Below are positions 1,809-63,622 of a stretch of 64,000 nt of DNA, piece by piece; the first letter of the stretch is position 1; every line of letters starts with the position of its first letter. The DNA is from Alphaproteobacteria bacterium (GTDB lineage Bacteria; Pseudomonadota; Alphaproteobacteria; Rickettsiales; SXRF01), in the NCBI GenBank assembly GCA_039808985.1, contig JBDHUC010000004.1, positions 26,050-90,049 on the forward strand, read 5' to 3'. A model generated the notes under the pieces. The model saw only the letters and a list, made by a program, of their open reading frames with translations. It did no database searches and had not been told where the DNA came from. The position numbers and the translations under genes were made by a program.

Positions 1809-3626
1809 ATGACCAAAACCTATGGTAAATCCACCCTTCCCTCCCGCCATGTAACCGAAGGGCCGCAACGTGCTCCGCACCGTTCCTATCTTTACGCCAT
1901 GGGCATAACCGAAGCGGCTATACATGCGCCGCTAGTTGGTGTCGCCACCACCTGGAACGAAGCCGCGCCATGCAACATCACTCTCGCCCGTCAGGCGCAG
2001 GTGGTAAAAAAAGGCGTGGCGGCAGCAGGTGGAACCCCTCGTGAATTTACGACAATCACCGTAACCGATGGCATCGCAATGGGGCACCAGGGCATGAAAT
2101 CATCGCTGGTTTCGCGTGAGGTGATAGCCGATTCGGTCGAGCTTACCATGCGCGGCCATTCCTATGACGCACTGGTCGGGCTTGCAGGCTGCGATAAATC
2201 CCTGCCCGGCCTGATGATGGCTATGGTTCGCCTGAACGTGCCCAGCGTATTCATCTATGGCGGCTCTATACTTCCGGGAAAATTCAAGGGCAAACAGGTG
2301 ACTGTTGTCGATGTATTCGAAGGGGTGGGAAGCCACAGCGCGGGCAATATGAGCGAAGAAGATCTGCACGAGCTGGAACAGGTCGCCTGCCCATCGGCTG
2401 GTTCATGCGGCGGGCAGTTCACCGCCAACACCATGGCCTGCGTGTCCGAAGCCATAGGCCTTGCCCTGCCCGGCTCCGCTGGTGCTCCTGCGCCTTATGA
2501 ATCGCGTGACCAGTTTGGGTTCGAGTCTGGCCGCGCGGTTATGGAACTGCTCAAAAACAAAATCCGCCCGCGCGATATAGTCACCCGCAAGGCATTGGAA
2601 AACGCCGCAGCAGTGGTCGCGGCAACCGGCGGTTCGACCAATGCAGCGCTTCACCTGCCAGCTATCGCCAATGAATGCGGCATTGACTTTGACATCCACG
2701 CGGTCGGCGAAGTATTCAAGCGCACCCCATACCTTGCCGATTTGATGCCCGGCGGCAAATATTCCGCCAAGGATATGTATGAGGCAGGCGGCGTTCAGAT
2801 AGTTCTCAAAACCCTGCTTGACGGCGGCTACCTCCATGGCGATGGCCTGACCGTAACCGGAAAAACAATGGCCGAGAATTTGAAAAATGTAAAATTCCCT
2901 ACATTCCGTCATCCTGTGAATCACTCCAGTGATTGCACAGGATCTAAGACGGCAAAAGATCCTGCGCAACCGCTTCGCCCCTCGCAGGATGACAGTGAGG
3001 GCCAGAATGTTGTCCGTCCCTATAACGACCCGATAACCCCAACCGGCGGCGTAGTAGTGCTTAAAGGCAACCTTGCCCCGGAAGGAGCAATCGTAAAAGT
3101 CGCAGGCATGAAGAATCTGGTATTTAAAGGCACCGCGCTATGTTTTGATTGCGAGGAAGATGCCTTCGCTGCGGTCGAGAAAAAGCAATATAAGGAAGGC
3201 GATGTTATAGTCATACGTTATGAAGGCCCACGCGGCGGCCCAGGTATGCGCGAAATGCTATCAACCACCGCTGCCCTCTATGGGCAGGGCGCTGGCGATA
3301 AGGTAGCGCTTATAACTGATGGTCGTTTTTCCGGCGGCACCCGTGGTTTCTGCATAGGCCATGTCGGCCCCGAAGCGGCAGTTGGCGGCCCTATCGGCCT
3401 GCTAAAGAACGGCGATGTTATAACTATTGATGCAACAAACTCCACCATCCATGTTGAACTTTCCGATGCCGAACTGGAAAAACGCCGCGCAGAATGGAAA
3501 CCACGCAGAAATGATTACGGCTCCGGCGCATTGTGGAAATACGCGCAGATCGTAGGCCCGGCAGAAAAAGGCGCGCTGACTCATCCCGGCGCAAACGCAG
3601 AAACCAAAGCCTATGCGGATATTTAA
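1809..3626 (+). CDS. ilvD: dihydroxy-acid dehydratase, carrying an in-frame repeat-element insertion
   Basis: 605-aa ORF with IlvD/Edd signatures throughout ([53 protein letters not shown]). Confidence 0.93.
2908..2993. repeat. Family-C double-hairpin element inserted in-frame in ilvD
   Basis: GTCATCCTGTGA...GCACAGGATCT ... GATCCTGCGCAA...CGCAGGATGAC. The same two-stem architecture occurs in the intergenic copies at 24698-24800, 34574-34662, 6957-7045 and 57040-57152. Confidence 0.8.
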
Positions 3627-4572
3627 ACTGCTGTTTAATCCACTGCTTATATGTATTGCAGCAGGGATAGCCTATGGGGTCTGCCTGCTTTCCGGCAGGT
3701 TCTGGCTGGCCGACCTTGTAGTCCATTTCCGCCTGCATATGACAGTAGCTTTTTTTATGTTCGCTATTTTATTCATCCTGCAAAAACATTGGCGCTATTC
3801 GCTGTGTATGCTTGCATTCTCCATTTGCTCTGCAATCGCGGTCCAGTCAGCCTTTGCGCCACCATCGCAGCCGGAGGGAACCGCAAAAGCAAGCCTTAAA
3901 ATACTGCAGTTTAATATACTTTATACAAATGAGGAATTTGCAAAAGCCATACCATGGATAATAGCTCAGGACGCCGATATAGTGGTATTGCAGGAGGTGA
4001 ATGAAGCCCGCGCCGGGGAAATGGGGCCTCTTAAAGAATATTACAAATGGTCGCAGATAAAAATAAACCCGCAGCGCGAAGCTTTCGGTATGGCTATATT
4101 CAGCAACCTTCCAGTAACAAAATTCGATTACGTGAATATAGGCCGGGGATGGAATAAATATACCAGGACAGAGTTCATGGTGAATAATACCCCATTTCAT
4201 CTCTACGAATTACACACACCGCCGCCTATGTCGCGGTTTTTCTTTTCCCAGCGTAACCGTGCTTTAGAACTCATGGGCAATCTTCTTTCCGAGGACCAGA
4301 CACAGCACCGTATCCTGCTTGGCGACCTGAACACGACTATTTACTCGCCATTTTTTAGCAATATACTTTCAAAAACCGGAATGCACCATGCCCAGCAGGG
4401 CTATAATATGGAGGGAACATGGCCGCAAGCCCTGCCAATGCCGCTTAGAATAGGAATAGACCATATAATAGCATCGAGGCAGGTAAAGGTTGAAAGCCGG
4501 GAAGTCCAGGGGTACCATGGCTCCGACCATTTGCCGGTAATAACAAAACTAACATTTTATGAGGATAAATAA
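3613..4572 (+). CDS. membrane-anchored endonuclease/exonuclease/phosphatase (EEP) family protein (COG3021/YafD-like)
   Basis: Three N-terminal hydrophobic helices are followed by EEP motifs ([37 protein letters not shown]). The start overlaps the ilvD stop by 14 nt. Confidence 0.7.
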
Positions 4573-7093: not shown

Positions 7094-8485
7094 TCACCCT
7101 ACCTTTTCCTCAGCAGTGGCAATTCCCAGCAATTTAAGCTTGCGGTGCAAGGCCGAGCGTTCCATACCCACAAAAGAAGATGTGCGAGAAATATTCCCGC
7201 CAAAACGTTCTATCTGCGCGGCCAGATATTGTTTTTCGAACAGCTCCCGGGCTTCACGCAACACCATCGACATAATATCGGCATTAGTTTCCGGACGCGC
7301 CAGCACAGGGTTTGAAGTCAGTATTTCCGGCGGCAACTCGTCAGCGGTAATATTTTCTGTTTTCCCGGTAGTCATGATAAGCAGCCATTCCATCATATTA
7401 CGAAGCTGGCGCACATTCCCCGGCCAGCTATATGCCTGAAGCATAACAATAGCTTCCTGCGACAGCGAGCGCACAGGCAAACCAGCGATTTCAGAAGCCC
7501 GTTTTAAAAAATAGCTGCAAAGCTCTGGTATATCTTCGCGGCGTTCCTTAAGCGATGGGATACGAACCGGAACCACATTAAGCCGGTAATACAGATCTTC
7601 GCGGAAGCGTCCGGCAGCAATTTCATTTTCCAGATTATGGTTGCTGGCAGCAATAACCCGCACATCAACTTCCACCTTCTGTTTGCCACGCTGGCGGGTA
7701 AAGCTCTGCTCCTGTAATGCCCGCAGGATTTTTCCCTGTATTTCCAGCGGCAGGTCAAGCACCTCGTCAATAAACAATGTGCCATTATGTGCGCGTTCCA
7801 GAAGCCCAAGTTTTTCTGCTCCTCCGGTCGGATTCGTATCCTCGATACCAAATAATTCCGCTTCAACCCGGTCCGCGGTTAAGCCGGAAACATTCATAAC
7901 CACGAAATTAGCGGCTGAACGTGTTGATTTAGCGTGGATCATCCTCGCGTACATTTCTTTGCCAGTTCCCGGAGCGCCAGTTATAAGCACCCGGCTGGCG
8001 GTTGGCGCAATTTTTTCCAACGCATTGCGAAGCTGTTGTACGGTCTGGGAAGTGCCATTTAGCTGCATTTCAAACTTGCCGCGTGATTTAAGCTCAGTAT
8101 TTTCATTGCGCAGCTTGGCATTTTCCAGTGCGCGGGCGACAACCAGAAGCAGCCTATCCTCTTTAAATGGTTTTTCGATAAAATCATAAGCCCCCATTTT
8201 AATAGCCGAAACCGCAGTTTCTATATTTCCATGGCCGCTTATCATAATAACCGGAATATGGGGATATTTCTTCTTAACCATTTCCAGTATTCCAAGCCCA
8301 TCAAGCTCGCTGCCCTGCAACCATATATCCAGGACTATAGCCGACGGCACACGTTCAGCGAGCGCTTTGAATGCAAAATCACTGTTATGAGCCACTCTTG
8401 TGTCATATTTAGCATCTTTAAGAATATCGGAGATTAATTCGCGGATGTCTGCTTCATCATCAATAATCAATATGTCAGCGGTCAT
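7094..8485 (-). CDS. ntrX: sigma-54-interacting response regulator NtrX
   Basis: Receiver (ILIIDDEADIRE...VLDIWLQG), AAA+ (ITGAPGTGKE) and a C-terminal HTH. Strong resemblance to alphaproteobacterial NtrX, and it lies downstream of ntrY. Confidence 0.85.
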   Translation of the reverse strand: MTADILIIDDEADIRELISDILKDAKYDTRVAHNSDFAFKALAERVPSAIVLDIWLQGSELDGLGILEMVKKKYPHIPVIMISGHGNIETAVSAIKMGAYDFIEKPFKEDRLLLVVARALENAKLRNENTELKSRGKFEMQLNGTSQTVQQLRNALEKIAPTASRVLITGAPGTGKEMYARMIHAKSTRSAANFVVMNVSGLTADRVEAELFGIEDTNPTGGAEKLGLLERAHNGTLFIDEVLDLPLEIQGKILRALQEQSFTRQRGKQKVEVDVRVIAASNHNLENEIAAGRFREDLYYRLNVVPVRIPSLKERREDIPELCSYFLKRASEIAGLPVRSLSQEAIVMLQAYSWPGNVRQLRNMMEWLLIMTTGKTENITADELPPEILTSNPVLARPETNADIMSMVLREARELFEKQYLAAQIERFGGNISRTSSFVGMERSALHRKLKLLGIATAEEKVG

Positions 8486-8898
8486 ATTACCTCTAGTTGC
8501 AAGTAATTAGTGGTTAGTGATAAGTCATCAGAAGAAACAAGCTTTTTATGTAATGATTTTTGCAATCCATTCACCATGCGCCCTACCTCATCTGCGCTTT
8601 CTTTTAATATATCAAGATTTTCTATGCTTATAAAACCTAGATTTTTAGCAATAACAAGCTGTGTCTGTAATTCTGCAAGCGAGCCATTGCTAATGCTTAT
8701 AAATCTTAAAAAATCCTTTGTGCTTTCCCGACAAGAGCCTTCCGCTATATTGCTTGGTATTGAAACAGCGGCTCTGCGCATTTGCGCTGTAAGGCCATAT
8801 ATTTCTTCCTTAGGAAAAGATGCAGTGCAGTTATAAACCTGCGTTACAAGATTTACAGCTTTTTGCCAGACTTTTAGTTCCTCGTAATAATGTGCCAC
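8482..8898 (-). CDS. four-helix-bundle protein (23S rRNA intervening-sequence protein / Avd superfamily)
   Basis: GTG start with AGGAAA upstream. KVWQKA...FPKEEIYGLTAQMRRAAVSIPSNIAEG...GSLAELQTQL is the canonical TIGR02436/PF05635 pattern. Its stop overlaps the ntrX ATG (ATGA). Confidence 0.85.
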   Translation of the reverse strand: MAHYYEELKVWQKAVNLVTQVYNCTASFPKEEIYGLTAQMRRAAVSIPSNIAEGSCRESTKDFLRFISISNGSLAELQTQLVIAKNLGFISIENLDILKESADEVGRMVNGLQKSLHKKLVSSDDLSLTTNYLQLEVI

Positions 8899-8943
8899 TA
8901 TCAGCTTTCCTGCTTTCTCTTATCACTACTTTCCTACCACTAA
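8505..8943. mobile_element. Inverted-repeat-bounded cassette carrying the four-helix-bundle gene between ntrY and ntrX
   Basis: Left arm TTAGTGGTTAGTGATAAG (8507-8524) and right arm CTTATCACTACTTTCCTACCACTAA (8919-8943) form an imperfect inverted repeat. The cassette exactly fills the ntrY-ntrX junction. Confidence 0.5.
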
Positions 8944-11135
8944 TCTGTTGCCCTTATATCACAGTGTTGCAAAAAAGAAAGCGTTACTTTTGCGCCGCCA
9001 GAAGGAATATTATCTATCTTTATCAATCCATTATGATCATCAACTATCTTTTTAACAATTGAAAGCCCCAGCCCTGTGCCTTTACTTCTGGTTGTAACAT
9101 AAGGTTCCAGCATTTTGTTAATATCCTGGGTTTGGAAGCCTGCCCCGTTATCCTCCACGGCTATTACTATACGTTCGCCATCATGGCTTACATTAACATT
9201 AACAATGCCTTTTTCCGGTTTTTTTCCTGATTCTTCTATTGCTTCGGAAGCATTTTTAAGAAGATTGGTCATAACCTGGGTCATTTGCCGTTCATCGCAG
9301 TTAAAAATCACTGGTTTTTCAGGAATTGAAATAAAAAATTCTATAGATGGATAGGCAACCTGCGCAGAAAACACTGATTTTTTTACAATCTGCGCTATAT
9401 CTTCAGGAGCGAAGCGCACGCTTGGCATCTTGGCAAAAGAAACAAATTCATCCACCATTTTGCCAATATCACCAACATGCTTGGTAATAGTGTCGGTATA
9501 TTTTACAAAATTCTCCTCATCCTCACTTATAAACCTAAGGTATTTACGCTTTATTCGCTCAGCAGAAAGCTGGATAGGAGTAAGCGGGTTCTTTATTTCA
9601 TGCGCCACGCGCCGCGCAACGTCAGCCCATGCAGCGCTACGCTGCGCCGCCATCAGCGGTGTTATATCGTCGAAAGTCACAATAAATCCTTCCGTTATAT
9701 TACCGATGCTTTCCACCGTCACCCGCACATGCAGCGTTATGGCCTTATCGTTATTACCAAGTGTTACTGTGCCTTCAGCTATATCGCCTGGTATATTTTC
9801 TGCCTTTGCGAGCAGGCCTTCAAGGTCAGGCAGGAATTTTGCAATATCCTTTCCTTCCTCTGGCCGTTTATTGATACGCTCTAATATCGCAGCCGATGAG
9901 CGATTGAACAAGGTAATCTGCTTAGCGCTGTTAAGGGCTATTACACCAGCGGAAACCCCGGAAAGCACCGTTTCAGTAAAGCGCCTGCGCTCATCAAGCC
10001 TGCGGTTAGCGTCAATCAGATCGCCACGCTGGGCTTCAAGCTGCTCGGTCATGCGGTTAAAGCTACGGCTTAATGTACCGAATTCGTCCTTGCTGGTCGC
10101 ATCCTTGATTCGCGCGCTGAAATCCCCTCCACGCACACGCTCAGAAGCCTCTACCAGAAAGCGTATTGGCCTTGTTAAACGTGCCGCGAATACCATCCCA
10201 TACCACACGGAGCATATTAGCAGAAGCAAGGCAAGCGCTACAAATACAATAGAAAAAGTTATCTGCAGCCGGTCAAGCTGGCCTTTCAAATGTTCATATT
10301 CGCTCACCGCCCCTTGCGCATTCTCCATATGGTCTATCACCTTACTGTCAATAAGGCGGCCAACCAGCAGATAACCTTCCGGAAGCGCCGGGATTTTTAT
10401 AAGGGCGCGGACTTTATCGTCATCGGTGGTCATAATAACCACCTCGCCTTTTGCCGCCCTCTCAAGCACATCCGGCGGTATGGTTTCAAAGGCCAGGGCA
10501 AAGCTGAACCTTCCCTGCGCTATAATGCGGTTACGCTGGATAACAACAGCTTCAGTAAGAACCCGTAGTGCTGCCTGCGTAACAACAGCCTGCTCAAAAT
10601 CAGCAGGGCTGGAGATAACCAGGTCAGCAACCTGGTTCAAATCCCCCGCCATGGCGATTGCGTCAGCGCGGATATTTTCCTTATGCTCAGCAAGGTAGGC
10701 TTCCGCAACCGCCCTTGATTCCTCAACAGTCCGCTGCACACGCTCGTTAAACCATGTTTGTATGCCAATATTAAAAAACAGTGCTGAGAATATGGAAACT
10801 ATGATAGCAGGAGAAATAGTCACCAGGCTGAACATGATAATTATGCGTTTTTGCAGCTTGGCACGCGATGATCCAGCCCTGAGAGCGCGCCACAGGGAGA
10901 AAATCCGGATTGAGATAATAGTGATAACAATGGCCAGCAACCCAACATTTACGGAAAGCAGCGTCATCATCCGTTTTGGCTTCATGCCAAAATTAGTAGG
11001 GCTGTTATCAATTATGCTGTAGGTGATGCCCAGCGATACCATCACAGAAATAACAATTATAAAAAGTAAATTCCTGCGTAAAAACTTAGCGCCCCGCCAT
11101 AATAACGGATAATTTAAAAGAAATGGCTTGGACAT
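8940..11135 (-). CDS. ntrY: sensor histidine kinase NtrY
   Basis: 731 aa with N-terminal TM helices, HAMP, PAS, an H-box (AHEIKNPLTPI) and ATPase G-boxes (DNGAGF, GTGLGLSI). Positioned upstream of ntrX. Confidence 0.8.
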   Translation of the reverse strand: MSKPFLLNYPLLWRGAKFLRRNLLFIIVISVMVSLGITYSIIDNSPTNFGMKPKRMMTLLSVNVGLLAIVITIISIRIFSLWRALRAGSSRAKLQKRIIIMFSLVTISPAIIVSIFSALFFNIGIQTWFNERVQRTVEESRAVAEAYLAEHKENIRADAIAMAGDLNQVADLVISSPADFEQAVVTQAALRVLTEAVVIQRNRIIAQGRFSFALAFETIPPDVLERAAKGEVVIMTTDDDKVRALIKIPALPEGYLLVGRLIDSKVIDHMENAQGAVSEYEHLKGQLDRLQITFSIVFVALALLLLICSVWYGMVFAARLTRPIRFLVEASERVRGGDFSARIKDATSKDEFGTLSRSFNRMTEQLEAQRGDLIDANRRLDERRRFTETVLSGVSAGVIALNSAKQITLFNRSSAAILERINKRPEEGKDIAKFLPDLEGLLAKAENIPGDIAEGTVTLGNNDKAITLHVRVTVESIGNITEGFIVTFDDITPLMAAQRSAAWADVARRVAHEIKNPLTPIQLSAERIKRKYLRFISEDEENFVKYTDTITKHVGDIGKMVDEFVSFAKMPSVRFAPEDIAQIVKKSVFSAQVAYPSIEFFISIPEKPVIFNCDERQMTQVMTNLLKNASEAIEESGKKPEKGIVNVNVSHDGERIVIAVEDNGAGFQTQDINKMLEPYVTTRSKGTGLGLSIVKKIVDDHNGLIKIDNIPSGGAKVTLSFLQHCDIRATD

Positions 11136-11172: not shown

Positions 11173-11550
11173 TCAATTCAACGGCCTTTCGCCATAATCG
11201 TTAGCACCTTCGTCGCTTTTTTGAACATACCAGAACAACAGCAGGAATATACCAATACCAGTAAACGATACCAATATCCACCAGCCACTGCGGTTCACAT
11301 CATGCAGGCGGCGCGCAGCTACAGCAAGCGATGGCAGCAAAGTCGCATATGTAAATATGTTTCCCAGTATATTATTTGGTACGGTACCTGGTGCTCCGTT
11401 CCAGGCTACAACGGCTAATATTGCCAGAGCAACACCTATTACAGCGGTAAATAACGACCAGTACCAGAATTCCGACCGGCTGGCACGCCCTTTGAAATCC
11501 ACATATTTTTTTAAGCAGGTCTGTACAGCTTCCTTGAATTGCATAGCCAC
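11173..11550 (-). CDS. DUF805 family inner-membrane protein
   Basis: GRASRSEFWYW...RRLHDVNRSGWW motifs with three or four TM helices. Confidence 0.7.
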   Translation of the reverse strand: MAMQFKEAVQTCLKKYVDFKGRASRSEFWYWSLFTAVIGVALAILAVVAWNGAPGTVPNNILGNIFTYATLLPSLAVAARRLHDVNRSGWWILVSFTGIGIFLLLFWYVQKSDEGANDYGERPLN

Positions 11551-20701: not shown

Positions 20702-21657
20702 CCCGCCGTCCATGGGAAGATTTCGTCAATGCGCGCTCTCAGGCAAGTGGCGCTGCCGATATCCCTCCTGCCGATCTTGTAGATATGGAAGCCATGAACC
20801 ACCCTTCCCTTATAATTTGCCTTGCTTATGCGCAGGAAGAATTAATTTACGATGCGCAGAATAAAATAATAAAAGTCGATAGCAAAACCTATTCTGTTAC
20901 CCATCGCAATGAGCGCGTAAACAAGTTTGGCCTGGCCTACCGGCCAGATGCGAGCTTCTGGCTGCATAAAACCCTTGCCAGTATTATTGTCGGAGCAGCA
21001 GAGCATCTCCATAAAACCTACGGCTGGCGCACAGTTCTATATGACGGGCTGCGCACAGTTGAAGGCGCATTCGCGCTGTATAACTTCGCAACCGATGACG
21101 ATCTGGCGGCAAACCTCCTCGCCATGCCGGGAAAAAGCGCGCATAATAAGGGGCTGGCGGTTGACAGCATGATGGTTGATGAAAACGGTTTTGAAATAGA
21201 AATGGGCGGACATTTCGACCATCTCGATATGTCAACCAATGGCCGCGCATACAACGGCGATAAGATTTCTGAAACCGCAAAGAAAAACCGTATCATCCGC
21301 GAAGCAGCATTCCTGCGTTCGGCATTTTCGCAAAATCTTTTAATAGCCCCGCTACGCAATGAATTCTGGGATGACCGCCTGCCCGAAAACCACGAGGATC
21401 TATGGCGGGTTTTAGATAGCGCGGCGCGCTGCATCGGCCTTGAATATGAGGCGCCAGATAAAGAAAAATGGAATTATTCTGATTTTCTTGCCAATTGGAA
21501 AAAAATTTTCACTGGCCATGAGAAAAATCTTGAAGGAATAATTGGCCATGCTATGCCACCGCTTATTGAAAAACCGGAATTTTATCACGGTAATTATCAC
21601 CCGATTTATGACACCGCTTTAAAAGAAAGTGGAAAAAACCTAACTTTGGTAGCCTAA
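20698..21657 (+). CDS. M15-family D-Ala-D-Ala dipeptidase-like (VanX/DdpX-like) protein, extended form
   Basis: SAHNKGLAVD fits the S-x-H-x-x-G-x-A-x-D zinc motif, and LYDGLRTVEG fits the DgyRP-like region. 319 aa, longer than VanX. ATGA overlap with trpC. Confidence 0.55.
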   Translation: MTRRPWEDFVNARSQASGAADIPPADLVDMEAMNHPSLIICLAYAQEELIYDAQNKIIKVDSKTYSVTHRNERVNKFGLAYRPDASFWLHKTLASIIVGAAEHLHKTYGWRTVLYDGLRTVEGAFALYNFATDDDLAANLLAMPGKSAHNKGLAVDSMMVDENGFEIEMGGHFDHLDMSTNGRAYNGDKISETAKKNRIIREAAFLRSAFSQNLLIAPLRNEFWDDRLPENHEDLWRVLDSAARCIGLEYEAPDKEKWNYSDFLANWKKIFTGHEKNLEGIIGHAMPPLIEKPEFYHGNYHPIYDTALKESGKNLTLVA

Positions 21658-21680
21658 CTTTTGTAGCCTAACTTTTGTTT
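21639..21680. repeat. 3 x 14-nt tandem repeat spanning the convergent gene ends
   Basis: CCTAACTTTGGTAG / CCTAACTTTTGTAG / CCTAACTTTTGTTT. Contains the stop codons of both convergent CDSs. Confidence 0.8.
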
Positions 21681-39303: not shown

Positions 39304-39368
39304 GGACTAGGTCCTCGGTACTAGGTTCTAGATTACTAGCCCCTAGAACCCAGCCCCTAGAACCTGAG
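39304..39368. repeat. Heptamer-rich inverted-repeat hairpin (CTAGGTTCTAG / CTAGAACC type), fliN-flbD spacer
   Basis: GGGACTAGGTCCTCGGTACTAGGTTCTAG...CTAGCCCCTAGAACCCAGCCCCTAGAACC. A related fragment lies at 47441-47458. Confidence 0.7.
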
Positions 39369-39376
39369 GAGCAACA

Positions 39377-40714
39377 ATGCGACTACTAATAATCGGCGAA
39401 TTATACGGGCAGCTAGGCACCGCCAGCTCGATAGCCAAATCGCGTGGCGCCAGGGTTGCGCATGTAGCCGACATCGAGGGGGCGATGAATGCATTGCGTG
39501 GTGGCCAGGGTGCTGACCTAATAATGATAGAAGTACGTGAGGATATTGAGAAGTTAGTCAACTTACTAATGCGCGAACGCTTCAATTTAATGGTCATAGC
39601 CTGCGGCTTGGATACAGACAAGGACGCCGCTGTAAAAGCCATAAAATCTGGCGCAAAGGAGTATATTCCCCTTCCCCCTGACGAGGAGCTGATAGCTGCG
39701 GTGCTGGAGGCTATAACCGAGGAAATAAAAACCGTTGTGTTTGCCGATCCTGCCACCATGCGCACATTAGCGCTGGCCGATCAGATTGCGCCAAGCGATG
39801 CCAGCGTGCTTATAACCGGCGAATCAGGAACCGGAAAAGAAGTTATAGCCCGTTATATTCATCGCAAGAGCAAGCGTGCAGGCAACCAGATGATATGCGT
39901 AAACTGCGCAGCTATCCCAGAGGCTTTGCTTGAGGCCGAGCTTTTCGGCCATGAAAAAGGCGCGTTTACTGGCGCAGTTGCCCGGCGTATTGGGAAATTC
40001 GAGGAAGCAGATGGCGGCACGATACTGCTCGATGAGATAAGCGAGATGGACATGCGCCTGCAATCAAAATTGCTGCGGGTATTGCAGGAGCGAGAAGTAG
40101 ACCGTATCGGCGGCAGCAAACCGGTAAAGGTCAATATCCGTGTTCTGGCCACTTCAAATCGTAATATGCCTGAAGAAGTAAAAAAAGGCACATTCCGTGA
40201 GGATTTATATTTCCGCCTGAATGTTATAAGCCTGAACATGCCTCCACTGCGCGAGCGCAAGGAAGATATAAAACCACTGGCAGAGCATTTTATCGACAAA
40301 TATTCCAAGGCCAACGGAATACCAGTCAGAAAACTGACTGACGAAGCTCTTGGCAAGCTCAAAAGCTATAAATGGTCAGGAAATGTACGTGAGTTGGAAA
40401 ACACGATGCATCGCAGTGTGCTGCTTGCCAGCGGTAATGACATCGGGGCTGACGCAATTTACCTGAGCGGCGCACCGGAAGAAGTAAAGGCCGCACCTGT
40501 CGCTACCCAGCAGACACAGGGCACCAATCCGCTGGTTGGCAGGTCCGTGGAAAGTGTAGAGCAGGAGCTTATAATCGACACCCTAAGCTATTGCCTGGGT
40601 AATCGCACCCACGCCGCCAATATACTCGGGATTTCGATCCGCACCCTGCGCAACAAGCTTAAAACCTATAGTGAGCAAGGGCTGAACATCCCTCCTGCCG
40701 TGGGGGAAGAATGA
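39377..40714 (+). CDS. flbD: sigma-54-dependent flagellar transcriptional activator FlbD-like, with a degenerate receiver domain
   Basis: AAA+ sigma-54 interaction domain (GESGTGKE, GAFTGA, ELENT) and a Fis-type HTH. The receiver-like N-terminus lacks the acidic pocket. Confidence 0.7.
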   Translation: MRLLIIGELYGQLGTASSIAKSRGARVAHVADIEGAMNALRGGQGADLIMIEVREDIEKLVNLLMRERFNLMVIACGLDTDKDAAVKAIKSGAKEYIPLPPDEELIAAVLEAITEEIKTVVFADPATMRTLALADQIAPSDASVLITGESGTGKEVIARYIHRKSKRAGNQMICVNCAAIPEALLEAELFGHEKGAFTGAVARRIGKFEEADGGTILLDEISEMDMRLQSKLLRVLQEREVDRIGGSKPVKVNIRVLATSNRNMPEEVKKGTFREDLYFRLNVISLNMPPLRERKEDIKPLAEHFIDKYSKANGIPVRKLTDEALGKLKSYKWSGNVRELENTMHRSVLLASGNDIGADAIYLSGAPEEVKAAPVATQQTQGTNPLVGRSVESVEQELIIDTLSYCLGNRTHAANILGISIRTLRNKLKTYSEQGLNIPPAVGEE

Positions 40715-40722
40715 TTATAGCT

Positions 40723-40800
40723 CAGGATTCGGGATTCAGAATTCAGGAAGTAAGGGAGTTTTCCTTTCCCCTGACCTCTGAATCCCGAATCCTGACCCCT
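40723..40800. repeat. GATTCAG/GAATCCTGA heptamer-rich hairpin without cargo, downstream of flbD
   Basis: CAGGATTCGGGATTCAGAATTCAGG...CCTGACCTCTGAATCCCGAATCCTGACCCCTG. The arms match the inverted repeats at 62106-62138 and 62529-62553. Confidence 0.8.
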
Positions 40801-40842: not shown

Positions 40843-41216
40843 TTTAACTTGTCACCCCGCCGAATGGCGGGGTCTGGGACCAATATGAAAGAATATAATT
40901 ATTATGTTTATATTATGGCAAAAGAGCGAAACAGCACATTTTATACTGGCGTGACTAATAATTTAATCCGCCGCGTTTATGAGCATAAAAATGACTTAGC
41001 CGATGGTTTTACTAAAAAATATGGGATAAAAACTTTGGTATATTACGAACATCATAGCAATATAAATTCAGCAATACACCGAGAAAAATTAATAAAAAAA
41101 TGGAAGCGTGAGTATAAACTCAATGCCATTGAACAACTGAATCCTGACTGGAATGATTTATATTTAGATTTAATAAGGCCAGACCCCGCTATTCGGCGGG
41201 GTTACATTCACGAAAT
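40843..41216. mobile_element. GIY-YIG cassette bounded by family-D hairpins and flanked by a 34-bp direct duplication
   Basis: GAGCGAAACCAATGCCTGAGGCCACCGCAACAGC occurs at 40809-40842 and 41217-41250. The terminal hairpins are CTTGTCACCCCGCCGAATGGCGGGGTCTGG and CCAGACCCCGCTATTCGGCGGGGTTACATTC. Confidence 0.75.
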
Positions 41217-41235
41217 GAGCGAAACCAATGCCTGA
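40885..41235 (+). CDS. GIY-YIG nuclease family protein (COG2827/YhbQ-like)
   Basis: YYVYIMAKERNSTFYTGVTNNLIRRVYEHKN...FTKKYGIKTLVYYE...REKLIKKW is the canonical small GIY-YIG pattern. The ATG at 40885 is preferred over the TTG at 40849. The 3' end overlaps the flhA start. Confidence 0.85.
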   Translation: MKEYNYYVYIMAKERNSTFYTGVTNNLIRRVYEHKNDLADGFTKKYGIKTLVYYEHHSNINSAIHREKLIKKWKREYKLNAIEQLNPDWNDLYLDLIRPDPAIRRGYIHEMSETNA

Positions 41236-43369
41236 GGCCACCGCAACAGCAGCGCCAGCGCAGATTGACTGGCTTGCCCGTGTAAATTCCCTATCACGGC
41301 GCAAGGATATTTATTTTGCGGTTGGCATCATAGCGATACTTGTGGTGTTGATACTTCCGCTGCCATCCTTCCTGCTTGATTTTTTCCTTGGAATTTCCAT
41401 CACCCTTTCAGTTATAATCCTTATGACGGTTCTGTTCGTGGAAAAGCCGCTGCATATGAGCTCCTTCCCCACAATATTGCTTATCGTCACCATGTTGAGG
41501 CTATCACTGAACATAGCTTCAACCCGCCTTATCCTCGCGCATGGGCATGAAGGCACGGCAGCAGCCGGACACGTGATACAGGCCTTTGGCGGCTTCGTAA
41601 TGGGCGGCTCTGTAGTAATCGGCGTTATAATTTTTGGCATACTAACCATCATCAATTTTGTGGTAATCACCAAAGGCTCTGGCCGCATTGCCGAAGTATC
41701 GGCGCGCTTTTCATTAGATGCGATGCCGGGCAAGCAGATGGCTATCGACGCTGACCTGTCAGCAGGCCTCATAACCGAGGAAATGGCCAAAATGCGGCGC
41801 AAGGAAATCGAAGATGAAAGTAATTTCTTCGGCTCGATGGACGGTGCAAGTAAGTTTGTGCGCGGCGATGCGATAGCAGGCCTCCTCATCACCTTTATCA
41901 ACTTTATTGCCGGGATTATTATTGGTGTTGCGCAAAAGGGCCTGCCATTTAATGAAGCGCTCAACCATTACACAGTACTGACTGTCGGCGATGGCCTGGT
42001 ATCACAGATACCAGCGCTAATAGTTTCCACTGCCGCCGGTATACTTGTCACCAAATCAGGTGTTGCCGGTTCAGCCGAAAAAGCGGTACTTGGCCAACTG
42101 AGCCGACACCCGGCAGCCCTTGGCATAACCAGCGTGTTCCTGCTTATGATGTCGGTTCTGCCGGGCATTCCTTTTGTGCCGTTTTTCCTGCTTTCCTGCA
42201 TAACCGGGTTTGGCAGCTATTATCTTTTTAATAACCCGCAGGCCATTAATCCGAAAACCGGCGAGGCCTATCCTTCAGGCACAGCTCCCAAACAAATAGA
42301 AGGCCCGGCAAAAGATGGGGAAGCGCCGAAAACCGAAGAACAGCCAGCCGATTTTTTACAGATTGATTCGTTGCGCCTTGAGCTTGGTTACGGCCTTCTG
42401 CCTCTTATAAACTACCAGAAAGGGCACCGCCTTACCGAGCAAATCAAGGCACTTCGCCGCCAGATGGCACGTGAGCTTGGCTTTATTATCCCTTCTGTAC
42501 GCATTCAGGATAATATGCAGTTACCGCCCAATACTTACGTGGTGAAGGTAAAGGAAATAGAAGCGGCGCGTGGCGACATCCGCCCGGAAATGTTGCTGGT
42601 AATGAACCCAAGCGGCGGGAAAATCACTCTGCCCGGCGAAGAAACAACTGAGCCCACCTTTGGCCTGCCAGCCATGTGGATAAACGAAAACCACCGCGAA
42701 GAAGCTTTGTTCCGCAATTTTACAGTGGTCGACCCGCCTACAATTATTACCACCCATCTGACCGAAGTAATTAAAGACAATATGGCCGAGCTGCTTTCCT
42801 ACGCGGAAACGCAGAAGCTGCTCGATGACCTTGGAAAAACCCAGCAGAAGCTCGTTTCCGAAACCATCCCATCGCAGATAAGCGTTGGCGGCGTGCAGCG
42901 CGTGCTGCAAAACCTCCTGCGTGAGCTGGTTTCCATCCGCGACCTGTCCACCATTATCGAGGCTATCGCCGAAGCCTCGCGCACCACCCAGAATATAAGC
43001 CTGATAAGCGAACATGTGCGCAGCCGCCTTGGCCGCCAGATAAGCCACAGCCAGACCACCGATGGCGGGTATATCCCCATAATCGCTATGTCGCCGGGCT
43101 GGGAACAAACCTTTATTGAAGCGCTTAGCGGCAATGCTGATGACCGCACACTGTCAATGGCCCCAAGCCGCATCCAGGAATTCATCAATAATGTACGTGC
43201 AAGCTTTGATAAATTCGCCATGCAGGGAGAAAGCCCGGTACTGCTAACCAGCCCGGTTATCCGCCCTTATGTGCGCTCGATAGTTGAGCGTTTCCGCCCC
43301 AGCACCGTTGTCATGTCGCAGAATGAAATCTATGCCAAGGCGCGGATAAAAACACTGGGGCAATTATGA
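41228..43369 (+). CDS. flhA: flagellar export apparatus protein FlhA
   Basis: FHIPEP family: FPTILLIVTMLRLSLNIASTRLIL, GRIAEVSARFSLDAMPGKQMAIDADL. 713 aa. Confidence 0.95.
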   Translation: MPEATATAAPAQIDWLARVNSLSRRKDIYFAVGIIAILVVLILPLPSFLLDFFLGISITLSVIILMTVLFVEKPLHMSSFPTILLIVTMLRLSLNIASTRLILAHGHEGTAAAGHVIQAFGGFVMGGSVVIGVIIFGILTIINFVVITKGSGRIAEVSARFSLDAMPGKQMAIDADLSAGLITEEMAKMRRKEIEDESNFFGSMDGASKFVRGDAIAGLLITFINFIAGIIIGVAQKGLPFNEALNHYTVLTVGDGLVSQIPALIVSTAAGILVTKSGVAGSAEKAVLGQLSRHPAALGITSVFLLMMSVLPGIPFVPFFLLSCITGFGSYYLFNNPQAINPKTGEAYPSGTAPKQIEGPAKDGEAPKTEEQPADFLQIDSLRLELGYGLLPLINYQKGHRLTEQIKALRRQMARELGFIIPSVRIQDNMQLPPNTYVVKVKEIEAARGDIRPEMLLVMNPSGGKITLPGEETTEPTFGLPAMWINENHREEALFRNFTVVDPPTIITTHLTEVIKDNMAELLSYAETQKLLDDLGKTQQKLVSETIPSQISVGGVQRVLQNLLRELVSIRDLSTIIEAIAEASRTTQNISLISEHVRSRLGRQISHSQTTDGGYIPIIAMSPGWEQTFIEALSGNADDRTLSMAPSRIQEFINNVRASFDKFAMQGESPVLLTSPVIRPYVRSIVERFRPSTVVMSQNEIYAKARIKTLGQL

Positions 43370-43378
43370 ACAAGCTAT

Positions 43379-43450
43379 CAGGATTCAGGATTCAGGATTC
43401 AGGGAATAATTCTTGCTGCCTGACCTCTGAATCCCGACCTCTGAACCCTG
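43379..43450. repeat. GATTCAG/GAATCCTGA heptamer-rich hairpin without cargo, flhA-flhF spacer
   Basis: CAGGATTCAGGATTCAGGATTCAGGG...CCTGACCTCTGAATCCCGACCTCTGAACCCTG. Confidence 0.8.
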
Positions 43451-43457
43451 AGGCGCT

Positions 43458-44486
43458 ATGCGCCTGAGAACCTTCACCGCCTCCGACATGCCCACCGCCA
43501 TGCAGATGGTACGTGACGCATTGGGCGACAATGCTATAATACTCGCAACCGACAGCAAGGGCGGCAGGCAGGTAACTCTAACCGCTGCGGTTGAACCAGA
43601 TGATGAATTCAAACTTTCTTCTCCCTCTCCCCTTGGGAGAGGACGGGGTGATGGCAATATACCCGAACCCAGGGCCCCTGCTCCCGAGCCACTGACCAAC
43701 GATATAAAATTTGAACTCCAGAACATACTGCGCTTCCATAATTTACCGGAAATATTCATAGCCAGGCTTTTGCAAAAAATCACTCCGGCTGATTTTTTAG
43801 ATGTCATTTCCAAAAGGCGCGGCTCTGAGGAATTATTCCGCCCGGCCCTGGAAAAGCTCCTTGCGCGCAATTTTGTTTTCGATCCGCTTCGTTTTTCTAC
43901 ACAAGACATGCGCATTATGCTGGTCGGCACACCCGGTATTGGAAAAACGCTGACCATCGCTAAACTTGCAACAAAACTGGCCATGGATAAACAGTCGGTA
44001 GCCGTTATAACAACCGATAACAGCCGCGCAGGCGGGGTCGAGCAATTACAGGCTTTCACCTCGATACTTGGCATTGAATTACAAACAGCGAACACGCGCA
44101 GCGAACTTGAAAAAATATTAAAACAGCTTCAGCCGCGCACCCGTGTGCTTATTGATACTGCTGGCTGCTCACCATACGATGAGTCAGGGCTTGCCGAGCT
44201 TAAATCTATTGCAACCATCGAAAATATTGAGCCGGTCATGGTGCTCCAAGCCGGTGGCGACAGCATGGAAGCGATAGATACGGTAGAAATTTTTGGCACG
44301 CTGCCAATACGCCGCCTGCTGGTCACAAGGGCCGATACAACCCGCCGTTTCGGAGGGGTGCTGGCCGCTTCAATCGCACACGGTCTGGGCTTTTGCAATA
44401 TAAGCCGTTCGTCAAGCATAACCGATTCGCTACAGATGCTGGAACCACAGATGCTTGCGCACATGTTGCTAAAATATAAGGATTAG
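43458..44486 (+). CDS. flhF: flagellar biosynthesis GTPase FlhF
   Basis: SRP-type GTPase motifs (LVGTPGIGKTLTIAKLA, DTAG, TRAD) downstream of flhA. Confidence 0.85.
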   Translation: MRLRTFTASDMPTAMQMVRDALGDNAIILATDSKGGRQVTLTAAVEPDDEFKLSSPSPLGRGRGDGNIPEPRAPAPEPLTNDIKFELQNILRFHNLPEIFIARLLQKITPADFLDVISKRRGSEELFRPALEKLLARNFVFDPLRFSTQDMRIMLVGTPGIGKTLTIAKLATKLAMDKQSVAVITTDNSRAGGVEQLQAFTSILGIELQTANTRSELEKILKQLQPRTRVLIDTAGCSPYDESGLAELKSIATIENIEPVMVLQAGGDSMEAIDTVEIFGTLPIRRLLVTRADTTRRFGGVLAASIAHGLGFCNISRSSSITDSLQMLEPQMLAHMLLKYKD

Positions 44487-47493: not shown

Positions 47494-47625
47494 TCGCCTA
47501 ATAGTACGACAGAGAACTTATAAGATATTATTTGGATATATCTTATTTTACTTGAGATATTTCTTATTTTATGCCATCAATAAATTAATTTTCATTAAGT
47601 TCGTTGCTTATCGTTGAGGATTAAA

Positions 47626-57653: not shown

Positions 57654-58169
57654 TTAATATGCTTTCCAGCGCATTACTCCAAACAAATGCGAAACCTGTC
57701 CGTTTTCGTATCCGAGGGGAACAATGCAAGTTCTGTACCGAACATTCATATGATGTGCGTTAGTGAATTCACCTTCATCAATAACCGGATGTTTTTTATC
57801 CAGAACTTCCTCTATTTTTTTCAGGTTCGGGACTTTGGTGCTTGATAATAAACGCAATGCCATATCCGGATTATTGACATCATCACCAAATGCGCCAACC
57901 AGAGCCGAACCCATATAGCTATAACGGTAGCCGATACGCTTAACCACGTCATCAAGGCTTATCAGGAAGCAGTAATCCCATATGTCAGCTATTTCTTCCG
58001 GTTCAATATCGCTTTCATGCGGCAACTCGCTTTTATTGCGTATCTTGTTCCAGTATGCGAGTAGTTCATCATGACAGCGATGATGCAGGTCGCCTTCCTT
58101 GCCATGGCTTTTAAGTTCAGTCTGTTTCATTGTATGTTCTTGTTTCATTGCATGTTCTTTCATAAGCAA
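57654..58169 (-). CDS. PAS_5 (DUF1457)-like domain protein
   Basis: LLAYWNKIRNKSELPHESDIEPEEIADIWDYCFLISL resembles the alphaproteobacterial PAS_5 N-terminal pattern. The start codon is uncertain. Confidence 0.4.
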   Translation of the reverse strand: MLMKEHAMKQEHTMKQTELKSHGKEGDLHHRCHDELLAYWNKIRNKSELPHESDIEPEEIADIWDYCFLISLDDVVKRIGYRYSYMGSALVGAFGDDVNNPDMALRLLSSTKVPNLKKIEEVLDKKHPVIDEGEFTNAHHMNVRYRTCIVPLGYENGQVSHLFGVMRWKAY

Positions 58170-59242: not shown

Positions 59243-59536
59243 TTGTCATACCGGGCTTGAGCCAGGATCCATGGCTACAAATTCCATCGGCGAATACTCC
59301 CTGGATCCCCCGCCTGCGCGGTGATGACAACTAGAGCGTTTTCGCTTTAGTTGTGCGTTAGGCATCCGAGGCGAAGTGTACACAGCAAATCCACATGTGG
59401 GATTTGCTTTTTATAAATTACAAAATCCCGCATGCGGATTTTGTTAGTACATGAGACGAAGGATAACAACACGCACGATTAAATGGAAAATGCTCTAACT
59501 AATTACGAACTACGAAATACTAATTACGAATTATGG
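59243..59536. repeat. Stack of four repeat elements between fabF and mltG
   Basis: D-variant (59243-59330), family A (59331-59497) interrupted by family B (59383-59447), then a TAATTACGAA-type heptamer tract (59497-59536). Confidence 0.8.
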
Positions 59537-61347: not shown

Positions 61348-62088
61348 TTAAGCCATATACATTCCACCATTAATATGTAGTGTCTGGCCGGTAATATAAG
61401 ATGCCGAGTCACTGGCCAGATAAAGCGCCCCATCAGCGATCTCTTCTGCACTGCCCATACGCCCAAGCGGAATATTCTGGTTAATACGGGCTTTTTGCTC
61501 ATCATTTAGCGCATCGGTCATTTTAGTTGCAATGAATCCCGGAGCGATACAATTAATAGTTATCCCGCGTGATGCCACTTCCTGCGCCAGCGATTTCGCC
61601 ATTCCGGTAAGCCCGGCTTTAGAAGCGCAGTAGTTAGCCTGGCCGGGATTCCCCGTCCACCCGACAACGGAAGTTACAAATATGATGCGCCCGGCGCGGC
61701 GTTTAAGCATGCCTTTGATTGCCGCGCGCGCCAGCCGGAAACTGGCTGTCAGGTTGATGTCGATAACCTGCTGCCATTCATCGTCTTTCATACGCAGCGC
61801 AAGATTATCTTTAGTAACGCCAGCGTTACACACTAATATATCCAGCCCTCCAAGTGCCTCTTCCGCATTTTTTATAAGCGCATCAACGCTGGCAAGGTCA
61901 GATAAATTGCAGGCGATAGGTATAACACCATTGCCCAGTTCAGCCGCAAAACCCTTCAGCTTTTCTTCGTTACTCCCTGAAATAGCCAGATGCGCGCCTG
62001 CTTCTTTGAAACTCTTGGCAATAGCACTTCCAATGCCACCGCTAGCCCCGGTTATAAGTGCTTTTTTGTTGGTAAGTGAGAATGTCAT
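61348..62088 (-). CDS. fabG: 3-oxoacyl-ACP reductase
   Basis: ALITGASGGIG, NAG and YCASKAG motifs. The ATG at 62088 has GAGGA 5 nt upstream and is preferred over 62100. Confidence 0.93.
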   Translation of the reverse strand: MTFSLTNKKALITGASGGIGSAIAKSFKEAGAHLAISGSNEEKLKGFAAELGNGVIPIACNLSDLASVDALIKNAEEALGGLDILVCNAGVTKDNLALRMKDDEWQQVIDINLTASFRLARAAIKGMLKRRAGRIIFVTSVVGWTGNPGQANYCASKAGLTGMAKSLAQEVASRGITINCIAPGFIATKMTDALNDEQKARINQNIPLGRMGSAEEIADGALYLASDSASYITGQTLHINGGMYMA

Positions 62089-62105
62089 TTTTGTCCTCAT
62101 GTTTA

Positions 62106-62553
62106 GGGATTCAGGATTTAGGATTCAGGATTCGGGGGAAGAAAGTTTTTTATCCAGACTTTTTATAAGCCCATTGAGCATTTTTCCAACTTCCATATAT
62201 CCATTAAATAAATACAATATTGCTTGCTCAGTTGTGTAACCTAAATCACTGGCAATATAAAGCTGTGTTTCAACTTCAGCAACAGAACCATAAGCTATAT
62301 CAAGAAAGCGCATGTATTCTTTGGTAGTCCTGCGTGATTTTCCTTCAGCTATATTCGATGGAACAGAAACAGCCGCCCTTTGTAATTGACTGGATAAACC
62401 ATATAATTCTTCTTTTGGAAATGTCTTTGTTAACTTATAAACAGCAGCGACCAAAACCCTTGATTTCTGCCAAACTTCCAAATCACGATAACTATTAATA
62501 TTCATAATCTTATCTTGAATTTTCTCTGCCCCCTGAATCCTGACCCCTGAATC
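62106..62553. mobile_element. Inverted-repeat-bounded cassette carrying a four-helix-bundle gene between fabD and fabG
   Basis: Left arm GGGATTCAGGATTTAGGATTCAGGATTCGGGGG (62106-62138). Right arm CCCCCTGAATCCTGACCCCTGAATC (62529-62553) abuts the fabD stop codon. Confidence 0.55.
62125..62505 (-). CDS. four-helix-bundle protein (23S rRNA intervening-sequence protein / Avd superfamily)
   Basis: YRDLEVWQKS...FPKEELYGLSSQLQRAAVSVPSNIAEG...GSVAEVETQL. Paralog of 8482-8898. Confidence 0.88.
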   Translation of the reverse strand: MNINSYRDLEVWQKSRVLVAAVYKLTKTFPKEELYGLSSQLQRAAVSVPSNIAEGKSRRTTKEYMRFLDIAYGSVAEVETQLYIASDLGYTTEQAILYLFNGYMEVGKMLNGLIKSLDKKLSSPES

Positions 62554-63495: not shown

Positions 63496-63622
63496 ATCCC
63501 TACCTTTTTTAATTATTATTTTATCCATCACTACGTAACCCCAAGGCTACAATCATTAAAGCTTTTCGGTAATTATAGCAACTGCGAATTGCTGGCATAT
63601 GGTGTAAGTGCCAGATATCCCA

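Follow-up and report, generated by a model that had tools for sequence, protein, structure and literature searches.

An intervening sequence-like cassette of a four-helix-bundle gene and inverted heptamer arrays in the ntrY-ntrX operon of an alphaproteobacterium

In a 64,000-nucleotide stretch of the genome of an alphaproteobacterium of the order Rickettsiales (lineage SXRF01; assembly GCA_039808985.1, contig JBDHUC010000004.1, positions 26,050 to 90,049 of the forward strand; hereafter the window), the genes for the sensor kinase NtrY and the response regulator NtrX are parted by a 138-amino-acid four-helix-bundle (4HB) gene that is flanked by inverted arrays of 7-nucleotide (nt) units. On balance, and with confidence only a little above even, we read this ntrX-linked unit as a selfish cassette of the intervening sequence (IVS) type known from 23S rRNA, in which a 4HB gene of family PF05635 and two inverted heptamer arrays act as one unit. 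An earlier note on this DNA, made from the letters alone, had described a cassette bounded by inverted repeats; the comparisons given here support that description, with the refinements that the copy is old and that its arms are heptamer arrays.

The gene, its arms, and its protein

The 4HB gene (positions 8482 to 8898) lies on the minus strand, as do its upstream neighbor ntrY (8940 to 11135), whose product has NtrY_N, HAMP, HisKA and HATPase_c domains, and its downstream neighbor ntrX (7094 to 8485), which matches the NF051870 NtrX equivalog at 667.6 bits against a cutoff of 600. The positions of the open reading frames (ORFs), together with these domain and equivalog matches, confirm the placement between ntrY and ntrX that the earlier note had proposed, and the ORF coordinates agree with its remark that the TGA stop of the 4HB gene overlaps the ATG start of ntrX, the four shared bases being ATGA at 8482 to 8485. 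The two host genes are indeed normally adjacent, as the same note had stated: in 32 more distant alphaproteobacterial loci (L059 to L092 in our numbering) they overlap in 14, lie 2 to 46 nt apart in 17, and are separated by a 78-nt spacer in 1. The 4HB gene starts with GTG, its orthologues with ATG; residues 1 to 125 of the product form the core and residues 126 to 138 an unstructured tail. The site of the cassette is a protein-coding operon, and not helix 9, 25 or 45 of 23S rRNA, and no Rfam rRNA match was obtained in the region. No known RNA family, promoter or terminator was found between 8300 and 9100, so that transcription from ntrY probably runs on through the cassette.

Each arm is a heptamer array rather than one half of a simple inverted repeat. 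On the sense strand the 5' arm (8919 to 8944, minus strand) reads ATTAGTGGT AGGAAAG TAGTGATAAG, with units of the AGTGGTA/AGTGATA type and a weaker 7-nt phasing that runs on to the start codon. The 3' arm (8495 to 8524, minus strand) reads CT TATCACT AACCACT AATTACT TGCAACT, that is, four (NNNNACT) units, and array detection placed a period-7 array at 8507 to 8531. Over the pairing core of the 3' arm (8506 to 8524), the complement is ATTAGTGGT-TAGTGATAAG, giving 19 paired bases in blocks of 9 and 10 nt, and the sole gap in the pairing is 7 nt (AGGAAAG), exactly one repeat unit, inserted in the 5' arm. The imperfect repeats seen in the earlier note are thus real, but its pairing of 7 and 10 nt with an 8-nt bulge gives way to 9 and 10 nt with a 7-nt insertion. 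The stop codon of ntrY (8940 to 8942) falls inside the 5' arm, and the 3' arm supplies the final 14 codons of the 4HB ORF, in keeping with the claim that the repeat encodes the C-terminal residues. In this arm-encoded tail, comparison with orthologues gave a proportion of nonsynonymous differences (pN) about equal to that of synonymous differences (pS), with the tail pS below the core pS. When the 491-nt region was folded, a stem formed by the arms and enclosing the ORF appeared in both the minimum free energy (MFE) and the centroid structure. An anti-Shine-Dalgarno role was considered for the pyrimidine tract before the 3' arm, which pairs with the purine-rich region of the ribosome-binding site (RBS) in both copies of the cassette in the window and in several gene-less loops, yet this is no feature of the family (over the 30 nt that precede the 3' arm, the purine fraction is about 0.5), and the idea was rejected.

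The assignment of the protein to the IVS-protein/Avd superfamily, also made in the earlier note, is borne out by matches to PF05635 (23S_rRNA_IVP; E value, 9.5e-41; 138.8 bits against a cutoff of 33.8), TIGR02436 (four helix bundle protein; 131 bits against 24) and bAvd (E value, 1.4e-10); NF008911 was matched as well (144.3 against 137), and one homology search returned more than 7,900 relatives. An AlphaFold (AF2) monomer model has four long helices and a mean predicted local distance difference test (pLDDT) score of 92.3, with residues 126 to 138 modelled as non-helical at a pLDDT of 61 to 69. The closest solved structure is that of Xcc0516 from Xanthomonas campestris (PDB 2GSC; E value, 3.3e-28), to which Foldseek superposed the model with a root-mean-square deviation of 0.6 Å, 48% identity and a template modelling (TM) score of 0.94 to 0.97. 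More distant Foldseek matches were 2RLD, the Avd protein of diversity-generating retroelements (DGRs; 4DWL), and Avd within the DGR ribonucleoprotein (8UB7, 8UBE). The entries 2GSC, 2RLD and 4DWL each contain five chains as deposited, and the literature describes 2GSC as a pentamer built of four-helix bundles (Lin et al. 2006, as cited in PMC10053308).

The fold raises the alternative that the protein is an Avd, a remnant or component of a DGR that works with a reverse transcriptase encoded elsewhere. Beyond the Foldseek matches 4DWL and 8UB7, there is a weak similarity to the PHROG "Avd protein of DGR" (E value, 1.4e-13). Against the Avd equivalog NF033474, however, which has a cutoff of 80 bits, the ntrX-linked copy scored 41.6 bits and the second copy in the window 35.1. 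Moreover, no reverse transcriptase was present among the neighbors, whether in the window or in those orthologous loci for which Pfam lists were available (L001, L003 and L005), heptamer arms were found but no template/variable repeat pair, and PADLOC gave no match. The idea of a defense system was set aside on the same PADLOC result. We consider a DGR origin of the unit very improbable. Pfam searches at E values up to 10 matched the 4HB protein only to PF05635 and bAvd, and to no HEPN or other catalytic fold and no Y1 (IS200/IS605-like) transposase domain.

Heptamer arrays across the gene family

Taken alone, the repeat in the window is matched in score by 1.3% of 5000 random segment pairs drawn from the window with equal spacing (p about 0.013); it gains weight because the orthologous loci and the wider family show the same architecture. 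We surveyed 80 metagenome loci encoding relatives at 45 to 58% identity and, in the 72 that had full flanks, scored how well the two 150-nt flanks align in inverted orientation, taking the best alignment. The median inverted-repeat (IR) score was 36, compared to 16 for a cross-locus control and 17 for a same-locus direct control. Identity at a lag of 7 nt was 0.40 upstream and 0.38 downstream, with harmonics at lags 14 and 21, against about 0.25 to 0.28 for other lags and control regions. Period-7 arrays reached a density of 4.17 per kb at up to 150 nt from the gene versus 0.31 per kb elsewhere in the same loci, and at least one array was present in 65 of the 80. When the consensus units were aligned in phase, A, G and T led in 38, 38 and 34 of 41, respectively, followed by four variable positions; the information content was 5.3 bits, compared to 3.7 for shuffled units, and the median array was 32 nt. 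The general form is then a 5' arm of (AGTNNNN)n and a 3' arm of (NNNNACT)n, each about 32 nt long, and the four variable bases change from one gene lineage to another.

All 22 hairpin candidates in 781 kb had the inward-facing order (AGTNNNN)n, gene or loop, (NNNNACT)n. A further reading of polarity, with the G-rich arm 5' along transcription, was rejected, since inverted repeats read alike on both strands and the 22 of 22 shows inward facing only. The same architecture was present in 23 of 34 viral-contig loci. It also occurs on plasmids, with arms of (AGTAGGG)n and (CCCTACT)n in Nostoc edaphicum, (AGTCAGG)n in N. punctiforme, and the (AGAGGAC) type in Azospirillum lipoferum, and one metagenome cassette (L112) has (GGGGACT)n and (CCCCAGT)n arms, a unit that we take to be the cyanobacterial STRR1 heptamer. 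On plasmid pNe_5 of N. edaphicum (L173), an antisense 4HB gene stands between co-oriented genes for the alpha and beta subunits of ribonucleotide reductase, and on a plasmid of Calothrix sp. PCC 7716 (L174), an antisense 4HB gene stands between co-oriented ABC transporter and secretion protein genes; in both cases the two neighbors are related in function, and co-orientation of the insert with its host operon is thus not required. Flank 7-mers were common only to loci whose proteins are at least 65% identical, and each 5' flank had on average 7 heptamers in common with the reverse complement of its own 3' flank, for an estimated chance expectation of about 0.8.

Absence of the repeat around other family members had been named in the earlier note as grounds for giving up the idea; instead, the repeat flanks most members in the metagenome and viral-contig loci. 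These surveys also settle the alternative that the window simply holds a chance inverted repeat around an ordinary small gene. The p value of the single repeat and the vertical inheritance of the gene, described below, would fit that account, but like arms are found around the orthologues and the second cassette of the window and, in three independent collections, around most members of the family, and the family survey has already refuted it. Covariation among the ntrX-linked orthologues was also considered; all of them have units of the AGTGGTA/AGTGATA type, and the arms of one locus pair with those of another, so that no argument from compensatory change could be made, except for GGCAAG/CTTGCC in L011.

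The window itself holds a second cassette (62105 to 62555, minus strand), identified from tblastn, sequence and Pfam matches, between fabD (62554 to 63531) and fabG (61348 to 62100). Its 4HB gene (62125 to 62505, minus strand; tblastn) encodes 126 amino acids that are 53% identical to the ntrX-linked protein. The 5' arm (62526 to 62555, minus strand) reads AGGATTC AGGGGTC AGGATTC AGGGGGC and abuts the TAG stop of fabD, and the 3' arm (62105 to 62138, minus strand) carries the complement, CCCCCGAATCCTGAATCCTAAATCCTGAATCCC. The IR score of 35 was reached by none of 5000 random pairs, and a long-range stem again appeared in both the MFE and the centroid fold. Relatives of this second copy at 72 to 77% identity lie at carA|carB (L181) and between a family-2 glycosyltransferase gene and an epimerase gene (L179 and L182), with AGGATTC/AGGGGTC-type arms kept. 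The nearest relatives of the ntrX-linked gene away from ntrX, at 64% and 58% identity, lie between the 2-oxoacid dehydrogenase E1 alpha and beta genes, pdhA|pdhB (L219), and at rpmI|rplT (L220), each with inverted heptamers of its own. Comparison of these loci shows the gene and its arms as one heritable unit whose operon junction differs from genome to genome. The mobility that the earlier note had suggested is supported at this family level, by relatives of the second copy with the same arm type at three operon junctions.

Gene-less hairpins are also present in the window. Hairpin A (40720 to 40798; -48.6 kcal/mol, z -8.1) is just 3' of the stop of a sigma-54 activator gene (39377 to 40714), and hairpin B (43376 to 43452; -32.6 kcal/mol, z -3.8), detected by Tandem Repeats Finder (TRF) as (TCAGGAT)x3.7 plus its complement, is between flhA (41228 to 43369) and an flhF-like gene (43458 to 44486). 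Both belong to the AGGATTC unit family of the second cassette, and both sit between consecutive genes of a flagellar operon, right after the upstream stop codon. A weaker hairpin C (39305 to 39366), with units ACTAGGT / CCTAGAA, has a marginal z of -1.95 (-28.3 kcal/mol) and lies directly 5' of the RBS of the ORF at 39377 to 40714. No gene-less hairpin of the AGTGGTA type was found within the 64-kb window. Directly after hairpin A, an ORF of 128 amino acids (40849 to 41235, plus strand) overlaps the flhA start and matches the GIY-YIG family (PF01541; E value, 1.2e-12), with no NCBIfam match; with the sigma-54 activator gene on one side and flhA on the other, it may be a further selfish insertion at a junction within an operon. 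Elsewhere in the window, a one-sided period-7 array (59498 to 59533) of ACTAATT/ACGAACT-like units, for which no clear complementary partner was seen, comes right after the fabF stop codon (59537), and TRF listed other short tandem repeats at 21639 to 21678 (period 14), 47528 to 47571 (period 21) and 58123 to 58159 (period 18).

Across the collected loci, the cassettes keep a regular placement. Of 44 cassettes with a co-oriented ORF upstream, 36 have the stop codon of that ORF between -15 and +11 nt relative to the base with which the 5' arm begins, and of 52 cassettes, 26 have a 4HB ORF that enters or crosses the 3' arm. Among 36 cassettes, 15 have TAG as the upstream stop, a codon that ends 31 of 155 other ORFs (odds ratio, 2.9; p 0.009). 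This bias is suggestive of TAG as an insertion target, an idea that was set aside, as the (T)AG of the array itself, supplying the stop, can explain it. Upstream neighbors are co-oriented with the 4HB gene at 61 of 71 loci and downstream neighbors at 48 of 66; since roughly 70% of bacterial neighbors are co-oriented in any case, these figures are only modestly higher, and we gave them no weight.

Another account would make the arrays and hairpins a mutational by-product, arising anywhere in intergenic DNA by polymerase slippage and template switching at quasi-palindromes, with the association to the gene incidental. Heptamers are over-represented in many bacteria, and gene-less inverted pairs are common in Xanthomonas (PMC4692102). 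Indels of one unit length separate the arms from each other and separate Coxiella strains, which points to slippage and template copying in DNA and argues against a view from RNA only. Against this account, arrays are about 13 times denser beside the gene than elsewhere in the same loci, the arm type is retained when the gene sits at a different junction, and the AGT core and the order of array, loop or gene, and complement are constant, an order shared by all the hairpin candidates described above. Such an origin is already disfavored, and we rate it as improbable.

History of the junction and the proposed mechanism

Six orthologues of the 4HB gene, at 83, 80, 71, 68, 68 and 62% identity, are all directly upstream of ntrX and all have AGTGGTA/AGTGATA-type flanks. 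Relatives holding the same gene at the same site with ordinary flanks would have been the mark of plain vertical inheritance according to the earlier note; the orthologues carry the repeats. The ATGA overlap with ntrX is present in 5 of the 6 (L001, L003, L008, L009 and L011), and in L009 the linkage to ntrX is kept although an OprB gene, and not ntrY, is upstream. Against the orthologues, the 4HB core shows a ratio of nonsynonymous to synonymous substitution rates (dN/dS) of 0.05 to 0.14 at dS values of 0.6 to 1.4, and the protein is under strong purifying selection. By the same comparisons, the ntrX-linked copy is not recent; it has been inherited vertically together with ntrX through this range of dS, and is old. 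It has possibly been domesticated. For one genome pair only, the window and L003, the 4HB core pS (0.43) is lower than that of the adjacent ntrX (0.69), and this could come from exchange of the cassette between lineages or from local constraint at the nucleotide level.

A scan for NtrX with one genome per species yielded 80 loci, and within the clade of the window, which comprises metagenome-assembled genomes labelled Rickettsiales, Alphaproteobacteria or Pseudomonadota, the ntrY|ntrX spacer is a variable spot. One locus holds an intact cassette (L017). Two hold a decayed remnant in which both arms and the last 25 or so codons are retained and the body is replaced (L015 and L016). Gene-less hairpins of other heptamer units occupy the spacer in five (L013, L019, L028, L035 and L036), a one-sided array in one (L033), and an unrelated conserved ORF of 101 to 103 amino acids with no Pfam or NCBIfam match in two (L020, 3661 to 3972; L024, 3640 to 3945). 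In L024, an (NNNNACT)-type array (CCACTTACCACTGGCCACTG) lies 3' of this unrelated ORF, and no 5' arm is present. The spacer is empty, at 7 to 31 nt, in eleven others of the clade. The ntrX dS values of L015 and L016 against L003, which has an intact 4HB gene, are only 0.25 to 0.27, and this argues that decay was recent there. The NtrX protein of L013 is 98% identical to that of the window, yet ntrX pS is 0.60 between them; L013 is not close at the DNA level, the absence of the gene from it says little on timing, and a recent insertion argued from the closest relative without the gene was rejected.

The wider neighborhood of the 4HB gene consists of ntrY and ntrX, DUF2079, methyltransferase and DUF805 genes, a gene for a Fis-like helix-turn-helix protein, and pyrG. 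The spot just upstream of ntrY is a second variable spot beside the operon: the window has the DUF805 gene there (11173 to 11550), whereas two different toxin-antitoxin pairs occupy it in L001 (BrnT/BrnA, 3154 to 3700) and in L003 (Phd/PIN, 2940 to 3612). The final 30 nt or so of ntrY (GTAACGCTTTCTTTTTTGCAACACTGTGATATAA; about 8945 to 8985 in the window, with equivalents in L013 to L044) are nearly invariant in DNA despite near-saturated synonymous sites in ntrX. This suggests a constraint at the nucleotide level, for example a signal for the downstream gene.

On the reading we favor, that of a selfish IVS-type cassette, the unit would settle where two co-transcribed genes are parted by a short spacer, and its first base would lie at or on the stop codon of the upstream gene. 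Having no promoter of its own, it would be transcribed with the host operon, where the arms would pair into a stem of 20 to 35 bp. By homology with the Coxiella 23S rRNA IVS, this stem is presumably cut by RNase III, and such processing would explain how an insert inside essential transcripts is tolerated. The extension of the ORF through the 3' arm, with its stop overlapping the ntrX start, would restore translational coupling in ntrY-ntrX; the conserved ATGA overlap suggests that translation of ntrX is coupled to that of the insert. Over evolutionary time, as the comparisons show, gene and arms have moved together between operon junctions, and the copies have then persisted vertically, decayed, or left gene-less hairpins. 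More speculatively, a pentameric 4HB protein may recognize the AGU/AGT triplets that recur in phase in the arrays of its own cassette, an arm of about five units being a fit for one pentamer. This idea comes from the conserved triplet with four free positions, the number of units, the five-chain relatives and RNA binding by Avd.

The strongest competitor is that the 4HB protein is a domesticated regulator, a host factor that either binds RNA at heptamer hairpins in several operons or serves as an accessory of NtrY/NtrX signaling, with the arms as cis sites or leftovers and the place kept by coupled expression. Retention of the gene right upstream of ntrX, with the ATGA overlap, over dS values of 0.6 to 1.4 at low dN/dS favors this account, as do the persistence of the ntrX linkage in L009 without an upstream ntrY, the preservation of the ORF while the arms erode, and the gene-less hairpins at operon junctions of the same genome. 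It sits poorly with the loss, decay or replacement of the gene in the close relatives L013, L014, L015 and L016 and with its absence at ntrY|ntrX from most of the clade. Sister lineages, furthermore, are in functionally unrelated operons (fab, car, pdh and ribosomal protein), and the window shows no AGTGGTA-type gene-less hairpins. We think a host function of this kind unlikely, though it deserves to be taken seriously.

Several observations weigh against a selfish cassette as well. Strong purifying selection and long stability are as compatible with a domesticated function as with a selfish one. The arms of several ntrX-linked copies are eroded, with IR scores of 17 to 22 (window, L001 and L008) versus 33 to 45 (L009, L011 and L012), and the stem in the window has only 19 bp with a 7-nt bulge. 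Arm mismatches compatible with G-U pairing (49) are not in excess over A-C mismatches (46), a test that is weakened by the ambiguity of register in tandem repeats; the lack of excess means no signature of selection on an RNA stem, and the equal counts fit the DNA-level copying of the mutational account. The rRNA-borne relative is the sole one for which RNase III cleavage is known. No direct repeat of at least 4 nt abuts the arms of either copy in the window, as read from the sequence, where array ends are fuzzy and no recent pair of filled and empty sites is at hand. Neither the window nor the annotated orthologous contexts (the Pfam lists named above) show a transposase, integrase or reverse transcriptase adjacent to the gene. 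Two of six plasmid copies are antisense to both neighbors, so co-transcription with a host operon is not universal, and the placement itself could reflect survival of insertions only in operon spacers, that is, selection rather than targeting.

A wider proposal, which we advance tentatively and with much less confidence than the cassette reading, is that PF05635 4HB genes and inverted (AGTNNNN)n arrays form one widespread class of mobile element. It would take in the ORF-bearing 23S IVSs, arrays of the STRR and Xanthomonas types as gene-less derivatives, and the orphan Avd-like genes between operon partners, with the pentameric protein as a specificity factor that promotes copying of arrays into new hairpins or spacers. 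Such copying might proceed by break repair at hairpins or through a partner enzyme acting in trans.

Comparison with known systems

Our literature search found no paper linking the PF05635 gene family to heptamer arrays in general, and heptamers beside an IVS ORF noted only for Coxiella, although prior description is possible outside the searchable literature. The link between the gene family and inverted heptamers, the wedging of the unit between operon partners, and the traveling of arms with the gene appear to be undescribed. If true, these links would tie three matters to a single unit: the origin and mobility of ORF-bearing 23S rRNA IVSs, an issue since the early 1990s; the function of the very abundant PF05635 proteins, which are orphans of structural genomics; and the surplus of heptamer repeats, and of inverted arrays made of them, between bacterial genes. 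The unit also shows that essential operon pairs (ntrY|ntrX, fabD|fabG, carA|carB, pdhA|pdhB and rpmI|rplT) can host a foreign gene over the long term, with the host frames adjusted around the insert, the upstream stop lying in the 5' arm and the stop of the insert overlapping the next start. For annotation, small 4HB genes with such arms flag remodelled operon junctions.

The repetitive extragenic palindromes (REPs and their paired form, REPINs) and their RAYT genes (PMC3116915) offer a close parallel in layout: a single gene between inverted copies of a short repeat, with gene-less hairpins in spacers of the same genome, often in operons just past stop codons. A flanked gene with dispersed gene-less copies is likewise what the second cassette and hairpins A and B present with their AGGATTC-type units. 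RAYT is a Y1 transposase with known chemistry, however, whereas no catalytic motif was found in the 4HB protein, and the arms here are tandem heptamer arrays and not a single palindrome. Avd has the same fold as the 4HB protein, with five chains in 4DWL as in 2GSC and 2RLD, and binds RNA within a ribonucleoprotein (8UB7/8UBE); the 4HB protein differs in scoring below the Avd equivalog cutoff and in having no reverse transcriptase or template and variable repeats nearby.

TRAP is a ring-shaped oligomer that reads triplets at fixed spacing in single-stranded RNA. It may serve as a mechanistic analogy only, for a pentamer reading about five units of a conserved AGU and four variable bases; the folds are unrelated. 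In the arrays described here, unlike in the TRAP case, the spacers within an array are nearly identical, and this points to tandem duplication.

Cyanobacterial STRR heptamers form comparable gene-less arrays. The inverted heptamer arrays reported from Xanthomonas (GGGAATC) and Nostoc (GGGGA(C/T)T) resemble the arms in being intergenic tandem 7-nt units, about four per array, often in convergent pairs capable of forming hairpins, and varying between close relatives (PMC4692102). Studies of that type discuss G-quadruplexes and draw no link to 4HB genes, whereas here the arrays bracket the gene and travel with it, and a G content sufficient for quadruplexes is limited to some units, which do not include AGTGATA and AGTGGTA.

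The nearest known systems are the 23S rRNA IVSs of Leptospira and Coxiella burnetii (PMC4990558). They have the same protein family inside the element, terminal inverted repeats that form a long stem around the ORF, 5' tandem heptamers of varying copy number, a sporadic distribution, and a long-suspected mobility. In Coxiella, the tandem heptamers (GACAGAT) are at the 5' end and the stem is cut by RNase III in vitro (PMC4990558). The differences lie in the host and in the state of the ORF: the IVSs are in helix 25 or 45 of 23S rRNA and the ORF of the Coxiella element is reported to be in decay and probably not translated (PMC4990558), whereas the unit described here is in the protein-coding ntrY-ntrX operon, and its ORF is intact and under purifying selection. 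The ORF here is, in addition, fused into the 3' arm and overlaps the start of the next gene, while RNase III cleavage is established for the Coxiella element. In light of these likenesses and differences, the ntrX-linked unit is an IVS-like cassette in a protein-coding operon.

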